Assembly: GCA_031386665.1 (NCBI GenBank)
Contig: JANNCN010000023.1
Location: 10,572 to 74,571 of the forward strand
Source: Rhodoferax sp.
Lineage (GTDB): Bacteria; Pseudomonadota; Gammaproteobacteria; Burkholderiales; Burkholderiaceae_C
Direction: 5' to 3'
DNA length: 64,000 nt
Below are positions 19,235 through 53,488 of the stretch, piece after piece. The notes beneath the pieces were generated by a model that ran no database searches, was not told the origin of the DNA, and saw only the letters and a list, made by a program, of their open reading frames with translations. A program made the position numbers and the translations under genes. How positions within the stretch are numbered: position 1 is the stretch's first letter; the number at the start of each line of letters is the position of its first letter.

Positions 19235-21430
19235 TCAATGCAGCGAATTTGGCCCGGTATCGCTTGCTGAATCCGCTAGCAAGGCGGACGACAGGCGCAC
19301 CCGCTGCGACAGCTCCCGGGCAATATTGCGAGTGATTTTGAGCGCCGCCAGCGGCTGCAGCTCAAGCAATGTCGAAATCGCCTGATTGTCAAGCAGCAGG
19401 GCCTGCACGGGACTGTCTGCCCAGGCTGTGGCCGAGCGGGTTTTGCCGTCAATGAAGCCCATTTCACCGACAAACTGACCTGGGCCAAAAGTGGCCAAGC
19501 GAGTCGACGCGTCGCCCTGGCCGGTCAAAATGCTGACACCGCCCGACTCCAGGAGCCAGATGCCATCTGCCAAGGCGTCTTTGCGAAAAAGCACCTCCCC
19601 TTTGGTGACGATCCGGTGCTGTCCCAATGCCAGCACCGCGTCGAGTTCGTCGGGTAGCAGGTCCTGAAGCAAGTTGTTGGCGGGCAGAGGGCGCGACAGC
19701 AAACCGCCGGTCATGACAGTTGAATTCATCAGTACCGAGTCTTCGCAGGCCTCAATGCCACGGTCTAGGTCAATGCAAAACTTGACGTCAATGGCAGACT
19801 GAAGCCGAAGGCGCAGGTGGGTTGCCCGAGTTTTTTGCAGCCCCGTCAGGATGACCTTCAGGCGCCGATCTGTCAGTGCTTTGACCAACCAACCCACAGC
19901 GTCCACGCCGCTGGGGTCTACGTCATGCACTTGGCTCACATCGATCACGACCACGGTGGCCTCCGGGTGTAAGTCATCAGCGAGCTGCATCAAACGGGAA
20001 CTGTTGCCAAAAAACAGATGGCCGTTGAGTTTCAAAACGCCCGCCCGGTGAAATGTCCGTGCCAGATTTTGGGTCTCACTAGCGCTTCTGACCCGCCGAG
20101 AATGGTGTTGATCCAGGTAGCCCCATTGCGCCGTCAAATTGCCAGAAACCCTTCGCAGCACTGCCAGACAAGATAAGGCCACTCCAATCCCGCAGGCCCA
20201 GATCAAATTGCCAAAAAAGGCGACGAGCGTGATAGCAAAGGTGATCCAAAACCCAAGATCCTGTGTGCCGGATACGCCCCTTTGCCGGGTGCCTACCATG
20301 GTGCGCAAGCGGCGCATGAAGGCTGGGTCGGCCATCACCATCGCCTGCATGAAGAACAGCCCCGCAACCACGCCAGCAGGCAACGCCATAAGCCAGGGCC
20401 CAAGCGTCAACAACACAGCACCAGTCATCACAAGGCAAAGGGCCGACGCCAAAGGGCCTCGCCCTCCGTCAAGCCAGCTAGAAACACTTCGAACCGGGCT
20501 GCCGCTGCTGGGTACGCCACCGAGCAAAGCGCTGAATGAGTTGGCGCCACCCAATACAAACAATTCACGGTTGGCGTTGTAGCGTGCCCCAAATCGTGTT
20601 TCCATGACGGCGGCGGCAGTGAAGGTTTCAAGAATCATGACCAAGGCCAGCGTCACGGCACCGGGCAGACCGATGGTTGCCAGCCGCACAAAGTCTTGCC
20701 CAGTCAATGAAGGCCACAACATCACCGACACCCAATTGGGCTGCCAGTCGGGTCTGATGCTGGTGCCTGGTGCCAGCGCTACGGGTTGAAGATAAAAAGC
20801 AATTGCGATCCCAATGAGAGGTGCCACGATGACAGCGGGCACTGCCCCCAGTGCGCGAACTCGGGTTGTGAGGTACGGCCAAACTGCATAGACTGAAATC
20901 ATCACGCCCGCAATCAGCGCTGCCATCGCACCATGAGGCACTATTTTTTGAACGGCCAAAGCGATGAGTACCAAGGCAATGCCTGTGCTGATGCCAGACG
21001 TCACCGGTGTAGGAATCATCTTAAAGACATTGCCAAGTTTCAAAACGCCTGAGAGCAGCACCAGCCCGCTCGCCAGCAAAAACATGAGACTGCCCGCCGC
21101 AAGGCCCAGCATAAGTTGCTGCGTTGAAAGATTCACAACGCCTGTGGTTGGTGCGCCCGTGGCCAGACACAACTGCCAAATCAGCCCGATGTAGGCGACC
21201 AAAGATGCCGTTCGAGCGCTGGGCATGACCGCAGCCTGGCCCCTGAGCAGCAATGCGGCCAGATGAATGACGGTAGCGGTGACCAGGGTCGCCCAAAACC
21301 CGGCGGCCATGGCCTGCGGACCTAAAAAACTGACAAATAACAAGAGTGGGCTGATCACGTTGATCAAGCCTTGCAAAGACGCAGCAACTGCGCCTTTTAG
21401 CTCTGAGACGAACTTGGTTTGGGTAGCCAT
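19235..21430 (-). CDS. SulP-family anion transporter fused to STAS and cyclic-nucleotide-binding domains
   Basis: Polytopic SulP core; STAS (VLKLNGHLFFGN...VVVIDVSQVHDVD); C-terminal cNMP-binding fold (FGPGQFVGEMGFIDGKTRSATAWA). Confidence 0.85.
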   Translation of the reverse strand: MATQTKFVSELKGAVAASLQGLINVISPLLLFVSFLGPQAMAAGFWATLVTATVIHLAALLLRGQAAVMPSARTASLVAYIGLIWQLCLATGAPTTGVVNLSTQQLMLGLAAGSLMFLLASGLVLLSGVLKLGNVFKMIPTPVTSGISTGIALVLIALAVQKIVPHGAMAALIAGVMISVYAVWPYLTTRVRALGAVPAVIVAPLIGIAIAFYLQPVALAPGTSIRPDWQPNWVSVMLWPSLTGQDFVRLATIGLPGAVTLALVMILETFTAAAVMETRFGARYNANRELFVLGGANSFSALLGGVPSSGSPVRSVSSWLDGGRGPLASALCLVMTGAVLLTLGPWLMALPAGVVAGLFFMQAMVMADPAFMRRLRTMVGTRQRGVSGTQDLGFWITFAITLVAFFGNLIWACGIGVALSCLAVLRRVSGNLTAQWGYLDQHHSRRVRSASETQNLARTFHRAGVLKLNGHLFFGNSSRLMQLADDLHPEATVVVIDVSQVHDVDPSGVDAVGWLVKALTDRRLKVILTGLQKTRATHLRLRLQSAIDVKFCIDLDRGIEACEDSVLMNSTVMTGGLLSRPLPANNLLQDLLPDELDAVLALGQHRIVTKGEVLFRKDALADGIWLLESGGVSILTGQGDASTRLATFGPGQFVGEMGFIDGKTRSATAWADSPVQALLLDNQAISTLLELQPLAALKITRNIARELSQRVRLSSALLADSASDTGPNSLH

Positions 21431-21598
21431 GGCGCTACATCAATGGGAACTTGGTGGGCAAGGTTAAGGTGTGATGGCGTGGCAATGCAGCCCCAAGTAT
21501 CGTGCAAAGATTGAGGGAAATCTTGCAATGATCGCGCAGGTACCCTGCAAGCGACGTGGCCGAAGTCAACGCCTGACTTTTATCAGCCCCGAGTTTGA

Positions 21599-22690
21599 TC
21601 AGACCCGTGAAAACCGCAAGGTGCCTTTGGCGTCACGGTGCCGCTTCAGCTTGCCTTCAAACCATAGCTTGTGCAAGTGCGCGACTGCTTCGCCCATGGC
21701 AAAGGTTATTTGGTGTAAGTCCAACTCGCGCTTGAACATGATGGGAACGATATCGGCGCCACTGCAAGGCTGGGCTGCACAGGCTTGCATCACTTCTTCC
21801 AGACGGTCATTGTGGTGATCATGCAATTGCCGAATTCGGATGTGCAGGCCGGTGAAAGGTTTGCCGTGCGCGGGCAGGGTTAGGGTGTCAGGGTGCAACG
21901 GATCAAACTTGTCAACAGAGTCGAGAAACTGCTTTAACGGGTTGGCCTCTGGCTCGTTCTCGTGAACGCTGACATTAGTTGAAATGCGAGGCAGCATCAT
22001 GTCGCCACCTATAAGAATACGGCTTTCTGCGCAATACAGGGCGATGTGTTCAGGCGCATGGCCATAGCCGCTGATGCATGCCCAGTTGCGTCCGCCAATG
22101 ACAACCGTATCGCCGTCTTGCATGCGCTTGAAGTTGCGGGGAACTTCGGGCACCAGGTTGCTAAAGTAATTCGTGCGCGCTCGAATCTGCCTGAGGTAAT
22201 CGGCGTTGAAAAGTCCGTGGGACTCAAAAAACGCGGCCGAATGATCACCGCCGCCGAAGCCCGTAGGGCTGATAGAAGCCAACCTTGCAACACCATAGTC
22301 GGTTGCGCTGATCCATAGGCGGCAGTCGTGATCAGGTGTTGTCCAGTGGTCGCAGATCCAGGCTGCCAAGCCGATATGGTCTGGATGCATATGGGTGCAA
22401 ATGACACGCAAAATAGGCAAGCCTTCCAGCGAGCCGTCAAATATTTGCTGCCACTGAGCTTTGGACTCGTCGCGCGAGATGCAACAGTCCACAACTGTCC
22501 AGCCTTGTTGCTTGCCATTCGGGCCGTCCAATTCGTCACGCAGCAGCCACAAGTTAATATGGTTCAACGCGAAGGGCAGCGCCATGCGAATCCATTTCAC
22601 ACCTGGAGCCACCGTGTACGTTGCGCCAGGCTCTGGCAGAGTGTCCCCTAGTGGGTAGCAAAGCTCTTTTTCAAGTTCATTCATGGACAA
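21599..22690 (-). CDS. MBL-fold metallo-hydrolase
   Basis: THMHPDHIG (HxHxDH) motif. Divergent from liuR. Confidence 0.8.
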   Translation of the reverse strand: MSMNELEKELCYPLGDTLPEPGATYTVAPGVKWIRMALPFALNHINLWLLRDELDGPNGKQQGWTVVDCCISRDESKAQWQQIFDGSLEGLPILRVICTHMHPDHIGLAAWICDHWTTPDHDCRLWISATDYGVARLASISPTGFGGGDHSAAFFESHGLFNADYLRQIRARTNYFSNLVPEVPRNFKRMQDGDTVVIGGRNWACISGYGHAPEHIALYCAESRILIGGDMMLPRISTNVSVHENEPEANPLKQFLDSVDKFDPLHPDTLTLPAHGKPFTGLHIRIRQLHDHHNDRLEEVMQACAAQPCSGADIVPIMFKRELDLHQITFAMGEAVAHLHKLWFEGKLKRHRDAKGTLRFSRV

Positions 22691-47470: not shown

Positions 47471-50400
47471 ATGCCTCAGGGAATCATTCGAATTCGCGGT
47501 GCCCGTCAGCACAACCTAAAAAACCTCGATCTGGACATCCGCACGGGCGAATTGACCGTGGTGACAGGGCCCAGTGGTTCCGGCAAGTCAAGCCTGGTGT
47601 TCGACACGCTTTTCGCCGAAGGCCAAAGGCGCTACGTCGAAACTTTCTCGGCTTACGCGCGGCAGTTTTTAGACCGGATGGACAAACCCGCGGTGGATCG
47701 CGTGGATGGGGTGCCGCCCGCGATTGCGATTGACCAAACCAACCCGGTTCGATCGTCACGCTCGACGGTCGGCACCATGACCGAGTTGAACGACCACCTG
47801 AAGCTGCTATTCGCCCGCGCCGCACACTTGTTTGACCGAGACACCGCACGGCCAGTGTGCCACGACACGCCAGAGAGCATTTATGCCGAGTTGCAGGCTC
47901 GGTCTGCCAGCAATTCGGAGATGCGCCTTGCCATCACCTTTTCAGTCGAGTTGCCCGCCAGCGCAACGGCTGAAGAGGTTGAGCAATGGCTGTCGGTGAG
48001 TGGCTTCACGAAGGTTCAAGCGCAACGTGAGGTGGCGTCTGTCACTGGACCACGCAAAGTGATTGACGTGGTGGCCGACCGGTTTCGTTTGAGCGGCGTG
48101 GAGCGCGGTCGCGCGATTGAAGCCATTGAAGTCGCACTAAAGCACGGCAGCGGAAGGCTGTCTGTGTATGCGCTGGGCAGTGGCACTGATGCCACGTCTG
48201 ACATCTGGCGTTTTTCGACAGGCTTGCACTGCGCCGATAGCGACATTCGCTACACCGATCCCATTGCGTCCATGTTCTCGTTCAATTCTGCCGTGGGAGC
48301 CTGCGAAACCTGCCGGGGCTTTGGTCGAGTGATCGGTGTGGACTATGGCTTGGTCATTCCCAATGACAAGTTGACCTTGCGCGCCGGGGCGATCAAGCCC
48401 ATGCAAACTCCGGCCTGGAAAGAATGCCAAGGCGACCTGATGCGCCATGCGGAAAGCGCTGGCATTCCACGCGACACCGCCTGGAACAAGCTCACGCCCG
48501 AGCACCAACGCTGGGTTATCAACGGCTCGCCCAATTGGAATGGCAAGTGGAACCAGCACTGGTTTGGTATCAAACGTTTCTTTGAATACCTGGAAACTAA
48601 GGCCTACAAAATGCACATTCGCGTGCTGCTGTCCAAGTACCGCAGTTACACGCCGTGCGGCACTTGCGGCGGCGCTCGACTGAAGACGGACAGCCTGTTG
48701 TGGCGCTTGGGCAGCAAGGCCGAAGCCGACAGTGTTTTGGCCGCGAACCTTCGCCAATTGCCCCAGGGTGCCAAGTGGAGCCGCGAGCAACTGGAAGTCC
48801 TGCCAGGTCTGAATTTACACGATTTGATGCTGCTGCCCATTGATCGCCTCAGGCGGTTTTTTAGCGCCATGCAGACACAGCAAACAGATTTGACCCTGGG
48901 TGCAAAATCGAATTCAGAAAAGCCAAGTCAGGGCGAAGCGCAGGCGCTGAAACTGCTGTTTGAAGAAATCACGACGCGGCTCAAATACCTGTGCGATGTG
49001 GGCATTGGCTACCTGACGCTGGATCGCCAAAGCCGCACGCTCTCAGGCGGCGAAGTGCAACGGATCAATCTGACCACGGCGCTCGGTACCTCTTTGGTCA
49101 ACACGCTCTTCGTGCTGGATGAGCCCAGTATCGGTTTGCACCCGCGCGACATGCACCGCATTATTGAGGCCATGCATCGCTTGCGCAACGCAGGCAACAC
49201 GCTGGTGGTGGTGGAACACGACCCAGCGGTCATGTTGGCGGCAGATCGCATGATTGACATGGGGCCTGGGCCCGGCGAGCGCGGTGGGCAAATTGTGTTT
49301 GACGGCACGACGCAAGACCTGCGACAAGCCAACACCCTCACGGGGGTCTACTTGGGCGGACGCAAGCATGTTGGCCTGGGCTTCAAACGCCTAGTGGCTG
49401 ACAACACACCGCGTTTGATTTTGGAGAAGGCGTCTGACCACAATTTGAAGAACGTTACCGTCGAATTCCCATTGCAGCGGCTGGTGTGCGTCACGGGCGT
49501 CAGCGGTTCAGGCAAGTCAACGCTGATTCAAGACGTGCTGGCCCCCGCTTTGTTGCGCCACTTTGGCAAAGCCACAGAAACCCCGGGCGCGCATGAGCGG
49601 CTGCTGGGCGCGGACCATCTGAGTGAAGTGGTGTTTGTCGATCAGTCGCCGATTGGCAAAACTGCACGCTCCAACCCGGCAAGCTACGTCGGCGCTTGGG
49701 ATGCGATTCGAGAGATTTTTGCGAACGCTTACTTGGCTCGCCAGCGAAGCTACACCGCCAGCAAGTTCAGCTTTAACAGTGGCGATGGGCGCTGCCCGAC
49801 CTGCGGCGGCTCGGGCTTTGAGCACGTCGAAATGCAATTTTTAAGCGACGTTTACCTGCGCTGCCCAGACTGCGATGGCAAACGCTACCGGCCAGAGATT
49901 TTGGAAGTCATGATTGAGCGGCGCTCGGCGTTGGACGCGCGGCTGATCAGCCTGAACGTGGCTGACGTGCTGAACCTGACCGTGAGCGAAGCCGCACTGG
50001 TTTTCGAAAAAGACCGTGACGTGATTCGCGCCTTGCAGCCCATCGTTGATGTTGGCTTGGAGTACGTCAAATTGGGCCAACCCGTTCCCACGCTGTCGGG
50101 CGGGGAAGCCCAGCGTCTCAAACTGGCCGGGTTTCTGGCCGAGGCAGCCAAATCGTCAAGCGCCAGCCGCCAGGGCGTGGGGCGTCGGGGGACCTTGTTC
50201 ATGTTTGATGAGCCCACCACCGGCCTGCACTTTGACGACATCGCCAAACTGATGCGGGCCATGCGCAAACTACTGGATGCGGGCAATTCCTTGATCGTGA
50301 TTGAACACAACCTGGATGTGATTCGCGCCAGTGATTGGTTGATTGACCTGGGGCCAGAAGGCGGGGATGCAGGTGGTGAAATCGTGGCGGTGGGCACGCC

Positions 50401-50590
50401 TGACGACGTGAAGCTGCATTTGACGTCGCACACGGGCCGAGCGCTGCGCGACTATGAGCAGGCGCTGGGGGCGGGGTCGCACCAGGCGCAGGAACACGGA
50501 GTGAATTGGCAACTGGGTCAGGGGTTGAAATTGGGGTCAGATCGCAATTTTTCTGCGCAGCACCCGCAGGGTCGTCAAAAGGACGAGTAA
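47471..50590 (+). CDS. uvrA: UvrA-like ABC ATPase, module 1 of a tandem UvrA-UvrA frame (ends at TAA 50588-50590)
   Basis: IRIRGARQHNLKNL, two Walker A motifs (GPSGSGKSS, GVSGSGKST), two LSGGE(V/A)QR signatures, Cys clusters CETCRGFG / CGTCGGARL and CPTCGGSG / CPDCDGKRY. Confidence 0.85.
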   Translation: MPQGIIRIRGARQHNLKNLDLDIRTGELTVVTGPSGSGKSSLVFDTLFAEGQRRYVETFSAYARQFLDRMDKPAVDRVDGVPPAIAIDQTNPVRSSRSTVGTMTELNDHLKLLFARAAHLFDRDTARPVCHDTPESIYAELQARSASNSEMRLAITFSVELPASATAEEVEQWLSVSGFTKVQAQREVASVTGPRKVIDVVADRFRLSGVERGRAIEAIEVALKHGSGRLSVYALGSGTDATSDIWRFSTGLHCADSDIRYTDPIASMFSFNSAVGACETCRGFGRVIGVDYGLVIPNDKLTLRAGAIKPMQTPAWKECQGDLMRHAESAGIPRDTAWNKLTPEHQRWVINGSPNWNGKWNQHWFGIKRFFEYLETKAYKMHIRVLLSKYRSYTPCGTCGGARLKTDSLLWRLGSKAEADSVLAANLRQLPQGAKWSREQLEVLPGLNLHDLMLLPIDRLRRFFSAMQTQQTDLTLGAKSNSEKPSQGEAQALKLLFEEITTRLKYLCDVGIGYLTLDRQSRTLSGGEVQRINLTTALGTSLVNTLFVLDEPSIGLHPRDMHRIIEAMHRLRNAGNTLVVVEHDPAVMLAADRMIDMGPGPGERGGQIVFDGTTQDLRQANTLTGVYLGGRKHVGLGFKRLVADNTPRLILEKASDHNLKNVTVEFPLQRLVCVTGVSGSGKSTLIQDVLAPALLRHFGKATETPGAHERLLGADHLSEVVFVDQSPIGKTARSNPASYVGAWDAIREIFANAYLARQRSYTASKFSFNSGDGRCPTCGGSGFEHVEMQFLSDVYLRCPDCDGKRYRPEILEVMIERRSALDARLISLNVADVLNLTVSEAALVFEKDRDVIRALQPIVDVGLEYVKLGQPVPTLSGGEAQRLKLAGFLAEAAKSSSASRQGVGRRGTLFMFDEPTTGLHFDDIAKLMRAMRKLLDAGNSLIVIEHNLDVIRASDWLIDLGPEGGDAGGEIVAVGTPDDVKLHLTSHTGRALRDYEQALGAGSHQAQEHGVNWQLGQGLKLGSDRNFSAQHPQGRQKDE

Positions 50591-50625
50591 ATTTGGGCTC
50601 TGCCCCCAATTTCGACCCCTGACCC
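50515..50625. repeat. Composite palindromic element in the UvrA inter-module linker
   Basis: The 36/37-nt arms (50515-50550 and 50589-50625) differ by 4 mismatches and 1 indel, with a 38-nt spacer. TAA overlaps the inner edge of the right arm. Confidence 0.75.
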
Positions 50626-50689
50626 TGACTCGAACCCAGCCGCCAACGCCATCCAGATCATCAACGCCAAAGAGCACAACCTCAAGTCT

Positions 50690-53488
50690 TTGAGCGTCAA
50701 CATTCCACGCGGCAAATTCAACGTGGTCACGGGGGTGAGCGGCTCGGGAAAGTCCACCCTGGCGTTTGACATTTTGTTCAACGAAGGTCAGCGCCGCTAT
50801 TTGGAGTCGCTCAATGCCTACGCCCGCAGCATCGTGCAACCTGCGGGCAGGCCTGAAGTTGACGCGGTGTACGGCATTCCGCCAACGGTGGCAATAGAGC
50901 AGCGGCTGTCTCGCGGCGGGCGCAAAAGTACGGTCGGCACCACCACCGAGGTGTGGCACTTTTTGCGCCTGCTGTATGTGAAGCTGGGCACCCAGCATTG
51001 CATTCACGATGGCGCTGCCGTGGCCCCCCAAACGCCTGACAGCATCGCCGCGCAACTTCTCAAAAGCTTTCGGGGGCAGCACATTGGTTTGCTGAGTCCG
51101 TTGGTGATGAACCGCAAAGGCGTGTACACAGAACTGGCCGACTGGGCGCGCCCGCGCGGCTTCACCCACCTGCGGGTGGATGGCAACTTTTTGCCCACCA
51201 CCAATTTCCCGCGCATTGATCGCTTCAAAGAACACACGATTGAGCTGCCTGTGGCCAGTTTTGACGTGCTGCCTGACAAAGAATCGCGTCTGCGCGAAGC
51301 ACTGGCCAGTGCTCTGGTGCATGGTAAGGGCGTTGTGCATGTGCTCAGCGATTTGGGTGCCCTGCGTGCGGCAATGTTGGCGGGTACGCCCACGGCTGCC
51401 GTTGGCAAGCTCGATGTTTTTTCAACCAAGAGGGCCTGCCCGGTTTGCAGCACCAGCTATGCCGAGCTGGACCCGCGCCTGTTCAGTTACAACAGCAAAC
51501 ATGGGTGGTGCCCAGACTGCGTGGGCACGGGCGTCAAGCTGACCAAAGAGCAGCGCAAGGTGTTCGACGACTCGGTGAAAGACGATGACAACAAGGGCCG
51601 CGAGCAAACCTTTGCCGAACCCGAGGTCGAAGATCTGGTAGATGCCGCTTGCCCCACCTGCCACGGCGCCCGCCTGAACGCCAACGCTCGTGCGGTCACA
51701 TTCGCGAAAGTCGGCATCACGGACATTGCACGTTTGAGCGTGACCGACATCCGCAAATGGGTCGAGACGCTGCAAGCGGCGGGCGGTATGTCGTCGCGCG
51801 AAACCGACATTGCCCGAGACTTGATTCCCGAGATCAAAAGCCGCCTGGCGTTTTTAGAAGAAGTTGGGCTGGGCTACCTCACGCTAGACCGTGGTGCGCC
51901 CACGTTAAGCGGTGGCGAAGCCCAGCGTATTCGCCTAGCAGCCCAGTTGGGTAGCAACCTGCAAGGCGTGTGCTACGTGCTGGACGAGCCGACCATTGGC
52001 CTGCATGCGCGGGACAACAAAATTTTGCTGAGCGCCCTGCAAAGTTTGAGCGAAAAAGGCAACACCTTGGTGGTGGTGGAACATGATGTAGACACCATTC
52101 GCCATGCCGATCACATCATCGATATTGGCCCCAGCGCGGGCAAGCGCGGCGGGCGGCTGGTGGCCGAGGGTTCGGTGGCCGACATTCAAAACGCCGCCGA
52201 ATCGCAAACTGGCCGCTACTTGCTGCACGCGATGAAGCACCCGGTGCAAGCGCGCAGAGCCGTGATCTGGCCACCAGTCGAAGTCGGTCCATTGAAATTG
52301 CGGTCAGAGCCCAAATTCGCCGCACCTTTGGTGCGCCCTTTGGGTAAAGCGCTTCGCACTTCAGCGAAATTGCGATCTGCCCCCAATTTGGCCGCCGGCG
52401 ACCCCAGTTCCATCGCGGTGTCAAAACCGGCCTGGCTCACCGTTCAGTCCGCCAATTTGCACAACCTGCAGTCCGTCACCGCCAACATCCCCCTGCAGCG
52501 CCTGGTCGCCATTACGGGCGTGTCCGGCTCTGGCAAGTCAACGCTAGCCCGCGATGTGATGCTGGCCAACGTGCAAACTGCTGTTCAAAAACGCAGTACC
52601 AAAGCCGGTCGCGATGCGATTGCTGCAGGTGAAAAATTCAATTGGGTGGGCTGCCAAGGCGTCGAGGGATTTGAGGTGGTTGACCGCGTGCTCGAGGTCG
52701 ATCAAACGCCAATTGGGAAAACCCCGCGCAGTTGCCCCGCCACCTACATCGGCTTTTGGGACATCATTCGCAAGCTCTTTGCCGATACGCTAGAGGCCAA
52801 AGCACGTGGCTACGCAGCTAACCGGTTCAGCTTTAACACGGGCGAAGGTCGCTGCCCGAGTTGTGAGGGCCAAGGCATTCGCACCATCGCCATGAGTTTT
52901 TTGCCCGATGTGAAAGTGCTGTGCGAAACCTGCCGCGGCGCCCGGTTTAATCCCGAGACGCTGGCCGTCACCTGGCGCGGCAAAAACATTGGCGACGTGC
53001 TGCAAATGGAAGTTGACGAAGCGGTCGATTTTTTTGCCGCCATGCCCAACATCGGCCATCCCGTGCAGTTGCTCAAAGACGTGGGGTTGGGGTATTTGAC
53101 GTTGGGGCAACCATCGCCCACGCTGTCGGGCGGTGAAGCGCAGCGCATCAAGTTGGTGACCGAACTTAGCAAAGTGCGTGACGACATCACCAGGCGCGGC
53201 CAAAAGCCGCCGCACACCTTGTACGTGCTGGACGAGCCGACGGTGGGCCTGCACATGGCAGACGTTGAAAAGCTGATCAAAGTGCTTCACCGCCTGGTCG
53301 ATGGCGGCCACAGCGTGGTGGTGATTGAGCATGACCTGGACGTCATCGCCGAAGCCGATTGGGTGATTGACTTGGGACCCGACGGTGGCAATGCGGGCGG
53401 TCAGATTGTGGCGGCAACCACGCCCGAGAAGGTGGTGAAACTGGGAACGCACACGGGCGTCGCGCTGAAGGCGGTCTTGGCCAGATGA
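50690..53488 (+). CDS. uvrA: UvrA-like ABC ATPase, module 2 (same frame as module 1; conserved N-terminus extends upstream to 50591 with no canonical start)
   Basis: Two GVSGSGKST, two LSGGEAQRI, CPVCS..CPDCVGTG, CPTCHGARL, CPSCEGQG..CETCRGARF. The upstream in-frame sequence encodes AIQIINAKEHNLKSL. Confidence 0.75.
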   Translation: MSVNIPRGKFNVVTGVSGSGKSTLAFDILFNEGQRRYLESLNAYARSIVQPAGRPEVDAVYGIPPTVAIEQRLSRGGRKSTVGTTTEVWHFLRLLYVKLGTQHCIHDGAAVAPQTPDSIAAQLLKSFRGQHIGLLSPLVMNRKGVYTELADWARPRGFTHLRVDGNFLPTTNFPRIDRFKEHTIELPVASFDVLPDKESRLREALASALVHGKGVVHVLSDLGALRAAMLAGTPTAAVGKLDVFSTKRACPVCSTSYAELDPRLFSYNSKHGWCPDCVGTGVKLTKEQRKVFDDSVKDDDNKGREQTFAEPEVEDLVDAACPTCHGARLNANARAVTFAKVGITDIARLSVTDIRKWVETLQAAGGMSSRETDIARDLIPEIKSRLAFLEEVGLGYLTLDRGAPTLSGGEAQRIRLAAQLGSNLQGVCYVLDEPTIGLHARDNKILLSALQSLSEKGNTLVVVEHDVDTIRHADHIIDIGPSAGKRGGRLVAEGSVADIQNAAESQTGRYLLHAMKHPVQARRAVIWPPVEVGPLKLRSEPKFAAPLVRPLGKALRTSAKLRSAPNLAAGDPSSIAVSKPAWLTVQSANLHNLQSVTANIPLQRLVAITGVSGSGKSTLARDVMLANVQTAVQKRSTKAGRDAIAAGEKFNWVGCQGVEGFEVVDRVLEVDQTPIGKTPRSCPATYIGFWDIIRKLFADTLEAKARGYAANRFSFNTGEGRCPSCEGQGIRTIAMSFLPDVKVLCETCRGARFNPETLAVTWRGKNIGDVLQMEVDEAVDFFAAMPNIGHPVQLLKDVGLGYLTLGQPSPTLSGGEAQRIKLVTELSKVRDDITRRGQKPPHTLYVLDEPTVGLHMADVEKLIKVLHRLVDGGHSVVVIEHDLDVIAEADWVIDLGPDGGNAGGQIVAATTPEKVVKLGTHTGVALKAVLAR
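52294..52393. repeat. Second copy of the palindromic element, in frame inside UvrA module 2
   Basis: GAAATTGCGGTCAGAGCCCAAATTCGC (52294-52320) and the reverse complement of 52364-52393 (GGCCAAATTGGGGGCAGATCGCAATTTCGC) share the unit found at 50531-50550 and 50589-50615. Confidence 0.7.

Follow-up and report, generated by a model that had tools for sequence, protein, structure and literature searches.

How does a bacterial DNA-repair protein come to contain a stretch of peptide that is, at the nucleotide level, a palindromic repeat? The question is raised by a 64,000-nt stretch of a Rhodoferax sp. contig (JANNCN010000023.1; hereafter the window, to the whole of which coordinates refer unless a contig label, C... 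or G000, is given), in which a tandem double UvrA gene carries a palindromic element at 52294-52390, read in frame within the linker between the two ATPase halves of its second module. An earlier sequence-only reading had described this element as the second of two copies of one repeat in the gene, compared it with repetitive extragenic palindromic (REP) sequences and with Rickettsia palindromic elements (RPEs), and proposed that one copy is tolerated in frame and the other is disruptive. The best explanation, to which we assign a probability of roughly 0.85, is that the element is an old, partly decayed REPIN carried in frame in the UvrA linker as a near-neutral passenger. In a REPIN, a short structured spacer separates two REP units of opposite orientation; the doublet is not self-mobile, and the presumed agent of its movement in trans is a REP-associated tyrosine (HUH/Y1) transposase (RAYT).

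Both units of the element and the CGCACC-TTT-GGTGCG hairpin between them were found where the sequence-only reading had placed them (unit matches GAAATTGCGGTCAGAGCCCAAATT at 52294-52317 and GAAATTGCGATCTGCCCCCAATTT at 52366-52389), and the frame opening at 47471 reads the element as GPLKLRSEPKFAAPLVRPLGKALRTSAKLRSAPNLAAG, the very peptide that had been quoted. A degenerate pattern of the unit matched eight times in the window (four units, each on both strands) versus 0.01 times in shuffled sequences, and the matches were confined to the two units of this element and the two units of the first copy (50527-50550 and 50589-50612). We built an nhmmer profile from 11 other genomic copies, excluding both UvrA copies, and it matched 52295-52389 at E 1.2e-12 and 50528-50612 at E 6.9e-16 (genome-wide E-values), so that the suspected nucleotide likeness to 50515-50625 is far beyond chance. 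The linker element aligned over its full length with a copy on contig C219 (73 of 98 positions alike) and with copies on C222 and C112, which share its central part: this part aligns with GGCC-GTT-GGCC / CCCTGTGGG in these three copies, the internal stem has been kept by paired changes (GGCC/GGCC vs GCACC/GGTGC), and the CCCTNNGGG motif is also common to the group. Grouped by spacer in this way, the first UvrA copy falls with copies on C30, C32 and C116. The linker copy keeps the layout of the family, whose members fold as long hairpins (-0.46 to -0.71 kcal/mol per nt), yet its own hairpin is the weakest of all (-0.36 kcal/mol per nt), followed by that of the first UvrA copy (-0.38). This fits an old linker copy that is probably no longer mobile, and we regard it as old and partly decayed, not as a recent insertion. 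A permissive Rfam scan of 50300-52700 matched no family.

The element belongs to a family dispersed over the genome. Its 13-mer core AATTGGGGTCAGA, with at most one mismatch, has 62 matches, distributed over 41 loci, versus an expectation of 4.2 given the base composition, and since four of these cores lie within 150 nt of contig ends, the true number is probably higher. Fuzzy searches and nhmmer recovered about 24 loci of an element of 77-96 nt, which is composed of two inverted 24-nt units (consensus CAAATTGGGGTCAGAKCSCAAW) around a structured spacer of 30-50 nt. In the copies on C30, C32, C116, C136, C140 and C168 the long hairpin retains one fixed arm mismatch (GATC in the 5' arm, GCTC in the 3' arm), an asymmetry that could mark strand or orientation for the transposase. 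A target-site duplication, the signature of a miniature inverted-repeat transposable element (MITE), was sought at the copies and none was seen: they have no flanking direct repeats, as would be expected of a MITE derived from an insertion sequence, and any flanks that resemble one another are inverted and extend the palindrome. The REP class tagged by GTAG/CGTC was rejected as well, as neither tetranucleotide occurs in the aligned units, while GGGGTCAG fits the GGGGWSAS motif of terminal inverted repeat (TIR) type and occurs in dispersed dimers; the same motif characterizes the repeats flanking 'TIRYT' tyrosine transposase genes (PMC3733652).

The family can also be linked to a transposase gene. 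The sole match to Y1_Tnp (PF01797) in the genome lies at G000:C8:11696-12022 (46.8 bits, over the Pfam cut-off), in a gene whose best NCBIfam family is the REP-associated tyrosine transposase, whose sequence holds the HFH and YIDLNPV motifs, and which is flanked by TAATTGGGGTCAGATTCCAATTA on one side and its inverse on the other. Orthologues of this transposase in genomes of the same genus are 71-94% identical, and in ten of the eleven inspected the gene is bracketed by inverted REP cores (in G009 the core is present on one side only). In line with the REP type named in the sequence-only reading, the family is thus a REP/REPIN family with its own RAYT, by the flanked-gene arrangement that defines such systems: a short imperfect palindrome, dispersed, forming inverted doublets, and bracketing a RAYT-type gene. 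In one respect it departs from the definition, because the copies are not all extragenic: at least five, the linker copy included, are embedded in long open frames (the others at the UvrA junction and in DnaE2, HrpA and a NasA-like protein).

We anchored the linker of module 2 by tblastn on the conserved ...RYLLHAMKHP and WLTV... blocks. It comprises 63 residues in this genome and 11 to 92 in relatives: 11 in L013, L014 and L016; 14 in L009, L011 and L018; 18 in L007; 35 in L010; 52 in L003; 58 in L006; 63 in L002; 76 in L004; 84 in L012; and 92 in L005. The homologue comparison thus yields the length difference that an insertion predicts, with 63 residues here versus 11-18 in seven loci of the same genus. 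In alignments to structures in the PDB, the blocks break off at query residue 537 and start again at 600, so that 62 residues remain unaligned versus about 10 in the solved UvrA chains, and several homologues of the same genus have only 11-14; both comparisons support an insert in the linker. The linkers of L004, L005, L006, L010 and L012 contain units of the same family, read as NLGSDPNF, and in L005 a full element is nested in an older unit. In a tree built from 1.5 kb of flanking sequence, this genome and G004 (L005) are sisters with full support, and REP-bearing linkers are limited to one of two clades of the genus, where they are interspersed with short-linker genomes. The 5' and 3' units of the element align at the positions of older units in L004, L005 and L006, but its spacer is nearer to that of the C219 group (73/98 positions) than to the spacers of these three loci (62/99). 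The linker copy is therefore probably descended from, or has replaced, a REP pair that was already at the site in the common ancestor with the sister genome; either this ancestral pair was later overwritten, or a second insertion took place at the same spot. A conserved ancestral linker as the primary explanation was rejected, because the LGSDPNF units are nucleotide-level REP palindromes of variable number and position and close relatives do not have them. Homologues in other genera likewise have LGSDPNF-coding units in this linker, but being REP units of variable number and position they do not refute the sequence-only reading.

Structure prediction points in the same direction. In an AlphaFold2 model of module 2 (72-sequence alignment, mean predicted local distance difference test score, pLDDT, of 73), residues 547-596 (window 52274-52423) have pLDDT values of 26-29 and no secondary structure, and this stretch follows the last helix of the first ATPase half and precedes the second half's first strand. 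The element corresponds to residues 553-586 of the model and is thus predicted to add about 33 residues of disordered surface linker, in agreement with the expectation of the sequence-only reading that the insert would map there. In comparison with the sister genome G004, the ratio of nonsynonymous to synonymous substitution rates (dN/dS) is 0.022 in module 1 and 0.026 and 0.023 in module 2 before and after the linker, and in the linker it is 0.41, a value from only 73 alignable codons with poor alignment and saturated dS. The flanking domains are under strong purifying selection, and the linker is close to unconstrained. Since the low ratios of the folded domains (0.02-0.03) extend over a dS of about 0.57, the REP-bearing gene has been functional for nearly all of that divergence. 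Together with the uninterrupted frames of relatives, this matches the behaviour of RPEs, in-frame insertions into genes that stay functional.

Table 1. Positions of the linker element, its host gene, the cognate transposase gene and further in-frame copies.
Feature	Position	Strand	Details	Basis
Decayed REPIN (REP doublet), ~97 nt	52294..52390	.	codons 1608-1640, (L)KLRSEPKFAAPLVRPLGKALRTSAKLRSAPNL	nhmmer, alignment, unit pattern
5' REP unit GAAATTGCGGTCAGAGCCCAAATTC	52294..52318	+	family consensus CAAATTGGGGTCAGAKCSCAAW	
Central part, one copy group	52321..52344	+	hairpin CGCACC-TTT-GGTGCG (52321-52335), then small palindrome CCCTTTGGG (52336-52344)	
3' REP unit GAAATTGCGATCTGCCCCCAATTTG	52366..52390	+	inverted relative to 5' unit	
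Tandem double UvrA	47471..53488	+	four ATPase domains, 2005 codons + terminal stop, single in-frame TAA	translation, Pfam/NCBIfam
Module 1 open reading frame	47471..50590	+	1039 residues, ends at TAA within first repeat copy	
First repeat copy, module junction	50515..50625	.	inner REPIN 50527-50613 nested between outer arms GGGTCAGGGGT / ACCCCTGACCC; contains TAA 50588-50590	
Module 2 open frame	50591..53488	+	965 codons + stop	
Linker between ATPase halves of module 2	52244..52432	+	63 codons, between ...LHAMKHP and WLTV...	tblastn anchors
RAYT-type Y1 transposase gene	G000:C8:11357-12061 (locus L021 1159-1866)	-	235 residues; outside window	
DnaE2, in-frame REPIN nested in older REP	gene G000:C219:2478-5888 (L102), element C219:3259-3353	-	residues 846-877 (QLGSDRNF...NLGSDPNW)	
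HrpA helicase, in-frame copy	G000:C37:30364-34491 (L103), element C37:31976-32053		residues 538-564 (EIGVRAQS...DLTPIS)	
NasA/NasC-like nitrate reductase, in-frame copy	G000:C140:12193-15321 (L104), element C140:13911-13986		residues 573-598	

Both halves of the host gene match UvrA in Pfam and NCBIfam, PDB chains also align, and two complete modules with four ATPase domains lie in one frame, here split by a TAA. Because relatives of the same genus have an uninterrupted homologous frame of 1900-2040 residues, we interpret the gene as a tandem double UvrA interrupted in this genome by a stop codon in the first copy (inverted repeat I1, with 40-nt arms that are 85% complementary). This TAA is the sole in-frame stop of the 2005-codon frame, which bears out the proposal that one copy is tolerated and the other disruptive. 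No ATG or GTG precedes the conserved N-terminal strand of module 2, the first listed start being a TTG at 50690. An assembly chimera at the repeat was rejected, both flanks being collinear with the same gene in about 20 relatives. The module junction varies among relatives in much the same way as the linker: it has no element in L002, L003, L010, L011, L013, L016, L017 and L018, a bare 21-nt palindrome AATTGGGGTCAGACCCCAATT (read as NWGQTPI) in L007, L008, L019 and L020, and full, stop-free elements in frame in L005, L009, L012, L014 and L015. The full junction elements of relatives are nested between outer GGGGTCAG/CTGACCCC arms, and the sister genome G004 has, at the place of the stop-bearing copy, a copy with a different central part. 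Several observations concern UvrA more generally. Single in-frame TAG codons occur in the double-UvrA genes of two relatives (G007:C18:904-1956 and G023:C666:500-2149), so breaks of this gene may be recurrent, or they may be consensus errors of metagenome assembly. A canonical uvrA lies on a separate contig of this genome (G000:C151:304-3606); its linker is long too (about 55 residues separate GKYL from LRVIGATGHNLKS, with no REP signature by eye), and it is for this reason unusable as a short-linker control. The alignment of module 2 (50636-53485) with solved UvrA extends across the UvrB-binding domain region, where module 2 has about 33 residues (303-336) versus about 118 in the solved chain (307-425), and most of the insertion domain thus seems, to judge from the alignment, to be missing.

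A plausible course of events would be as follows. The RAYT encoded on C8 would have moved the REPIN in trans as a single-stranded DNA hairpin. Its destination would have been the flexible linker of module 2, where it would have inserted into or beside an older REP or taken the place of a REP pair; whether by insertion or by later replacement, the net change in length would have kept the frame, and the element would be translated as about 33 disordered residues. None of the six frames of the REP core AATTGGGGTCAGACCCCAATT contains a stop codon, and the core reads NWGQTPI, IGVRPQ or LGSDPN, so that a frame-keeping insertion is simply translated, and all three readings were found among the intragenic copies. 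The element would then persist as a nearly neutral passenger between folded domains that are both under strong purifying selection, while selection would purge those copies that break folded domains or the frame, leaving survivors in the linkers of large multidomain proteins.

Some points weigh against this explanation. The arms of the linker copy pair poorly: its predicted RNA fold is not significantly more stable than that of shuffled sequences (z -1.7; 7 of 200 shuffles fold equally well), and a stable mRNA hairpin, which holds for other members of the family, is not supported for this copy. Linker length may have changed in both directions: since many Comamonadaceae have long, lysine-rich linkers of 50-65 residues, a number of the short ones may have arisen by deletion and not represent empty sites. 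The ends given for the insertion are approximate, because the copies show no target-site duplication and the rapid divergence of the linker prevents a good alignment. The transposase on C8 scores 71.3 bits against NCBIfam NF047646, for which the curated cut-off is 80. The upstream TAA may already block the normal translation of module 2 in this genome, and the assembly is of metagenome type (4.46 Mb, 229 contigs, 57% G+C).

A survey of in-frame copies elsewhere in the genome and of the same linker elsewhere in Comamonadaceae places the case in a wider context. The genome-wide census that the sequence-only reading had called for added in-frame copies in DnaE2, HrpA and a nitrate reductase to those in UvrA (Table 1). 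At the DnaE2 site the flanks are joined without an insert in nine relatives of the genus, and four relatives align through it; the copies in HrpA and the nitrate reductase form a strong hairpin, and matches to the family profiles of these proteins break exactly at the insert positions. The dnaE2 and double-UvrA genes lie on separate contigs in this genome (C219 and C176), and in the relative G001 they are convergent and about 1.4 kb apart on one contig (G001:C354:17137-18072 and 19476-22214). Among 80 Comamonadaceae loci the linker spans 11 to 92 residues; LGSDPNF-type units were found in Rhodoferax-like, Polaromonas and Limnohabitans records, and the linkers of other lineages hold the palindromic peptides RLRGNDG, GEGRGEG and IARSEATRQS. 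We counted the DNA motifs of three of these linker repeats in their own genomes and obtained 100 copies for L056 (genome G041), 38 for L091 (G042), 12 for L059 (G043) and 107 for L023 (G044), with reversed-pattern controls of zero in every case. At least four separate repeat families, the LGSDPNF type and three others, have thus settled in one UvrA linker. The repeats outside our family were located at 1677-1817 of L056, 3715-3966 of L091, 3730-3879 of L059 and 3763-3987 of L023. The linker of L029 (3760-3861) encodes MDPRVKPEDD, a candidate palindromic repeat.

Could the linker be a preferred landing site, in that a resident REP hairpin attracts further REPINs or that repair genes are hit non-randomly? 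We consider this possible but rather unlikely. Copies are nested in older units in the linker of L005, at the module junction of L005, L014, L015 and this genome, and in DnaE2; the copies of the sister genomes at the same two sites differ in their central parts; at least four repeat families occupy the same linker in different genera; and REPs have been reported in uvrA, dnaE2, helicases and recBCD across phyla (PMC3733652). To judge from the nesting, a resident hairpin may promote further insertions, but the same picture could arise by survivorship, which fits equally well, because selection would spare only those insertions that fall in long, disordered linkers within large proteins under weak constraint; in addition, no target motif is common to the different repeat families, and intragenic cases in this genome number only about five. 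In its stronger form, according to which the linker and the module junction would be true hot spots, resident REP hairpins seeding nested insertions and unrelated families converging on the same codons across genera and even phyla, the idea appears more doubtful still. If it were true, REP traffic would be a regular source of variation in linker length in UvrA, DnaE2 and HrpA, and the observed copies would be more than chance survivors.

It is improbable that the gene is simply broken by the TAA at 50588-50590, so that the content of the module 2 linker is inconsequential and nothing is being tolerated. The in-frame TAA, the absence of an ATG or GTG start 5' of the first conserved strand of module 2, the single TAG codons in G007 and G023 and the presence of a canonical uvrA on C151 would all be accommodated by such a pseudogene; however, both modules are otherwise intact, their dN/dS of 0.02-0.03 versus the sister genome was maintained over a dS of about 0.57, G004 and others hold even larger REP inserts in the same linker with frames uninterrupted for 1900-2040 residues, and the TAA could be a consensus error of the assembly. 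Least probable of all, and in our view very much so, is that the REP-encoded peptide was recruited as a functional extension of the linker (for spacing or flexibility between the ATPase halves, or as a contact surface) and is kept by selection: the same layout (unit, lysine-rich spacer, unit, always LGSDPNF) is indeed retained by many species, both within the genus and in adjacent genera, the linker dN/dS is 0.41 and not 1, and long linkers are frequent in this UvrA subfamily, but intact genes of close relatives make do with 11-14 residues, the sequence, length and even repeat family of the linker vary freely between lineages, the linker is predicted to be disordered, its dN/dS comes from 73 poorly alignable codons with saturated dS, and a constant reading frame is equally expected from shared ancestry alone.

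An old REPIN carried as a near-neutral passenger remains our preferred explanation, and the case illustrates a way in which selfish hairpin DNA becomes a source of linker sequence for a bacterial protein. A single genus displays short-linker, filled, nested and decayed states together, with the cognate transposase gene identified, and the use of the same UvrA linker by several separate repeat families adds to the value of the comparison. For annotation, the peptide words LGSDPNF, NWGQTPI and IGVRPQF in Comamonadaceae proteins flag translated REPs, and REP sites also break metagenome assemblies.

Three known systems can be compared with the element. RPEs are palindromic repeats found in frame in genes whose products appear to be functional, at sites that the protein fold can accommodate (Ogata et al. 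2000, as summarized in PMC10969869 and PMC3733652); they form families of 100-150 bp in an obligate intracellular alphaproteobacterium, and the accounts given in those two papers, as far as they extend to RPEs, name no transposase. The resemblance proposed by the sequence-only reading is fair as an analogy of behaviour, the in-frame insertion of a palindrome, and not of family; unlike RPEs as presented in these accounts, the family described here has a cognate Y1 transposase gene. REPIN-RAYT systems consist of hairpins formed by inverted REP doublets, in tens of copies, with one REP-flanked transposase gene per genome that is inherited vertically within a genus (Bertels and Rainey 2011; PMC3116915). 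Our family shares the doublet, the tens of dispersed copies and the single REP-flanked transposase gene kept within the genus, but whereas REPINs have been described as extragenic, about one fifth of the full-length copies here lie in frame inside large genes, and unlike typical REPINs the linker copy has lost much of its pairing.

The closest precedent is the work of Di Nocera, De Gregorio and Rocco (2013; PMC3733652), who reported single REPs and REP dimers in frame in DNA-repair genes, where they add 20-40 residues, tabulated dnaE2 genes with REP dimers, already proposed that such inserts may lie in flexible linkers, and speculated that repair genes are hit non-randomly. Among their cases is Oter_2709 of Opitutus terrae, an 'excinuclease ABC, A subunit' of 1995 residues in which a REP occupies 638-644 and a REP dimer 1601-1623 (PMC3733652); judged by proportion, this dimer (1601-1623 of 1995) probably lies in the same linker as the element described here (1608-1640 of 2005). 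In-frame REPs in uvrA and dnaE2 are therefore already known, and our case, with in-frame REP dimers in a double uvrA and in dnaE2, reveals no new mechanism; it supports the repeated decoration of these two genes by REPs. What is new is a GGGGTCAG-type REPIN in the UvrA linker of Comamonadaceae: unlike the uvrA REPs of Di Nocera et al., this family is without the GTAG/CGTC tag and its host is a Rhodoferax-like member of the Comamonadaceae, so that the phenomenon extends to a further type of repeat, and, going beyond that paper, empty and filled states, nesting, decay and selection could here be compared across one genus.

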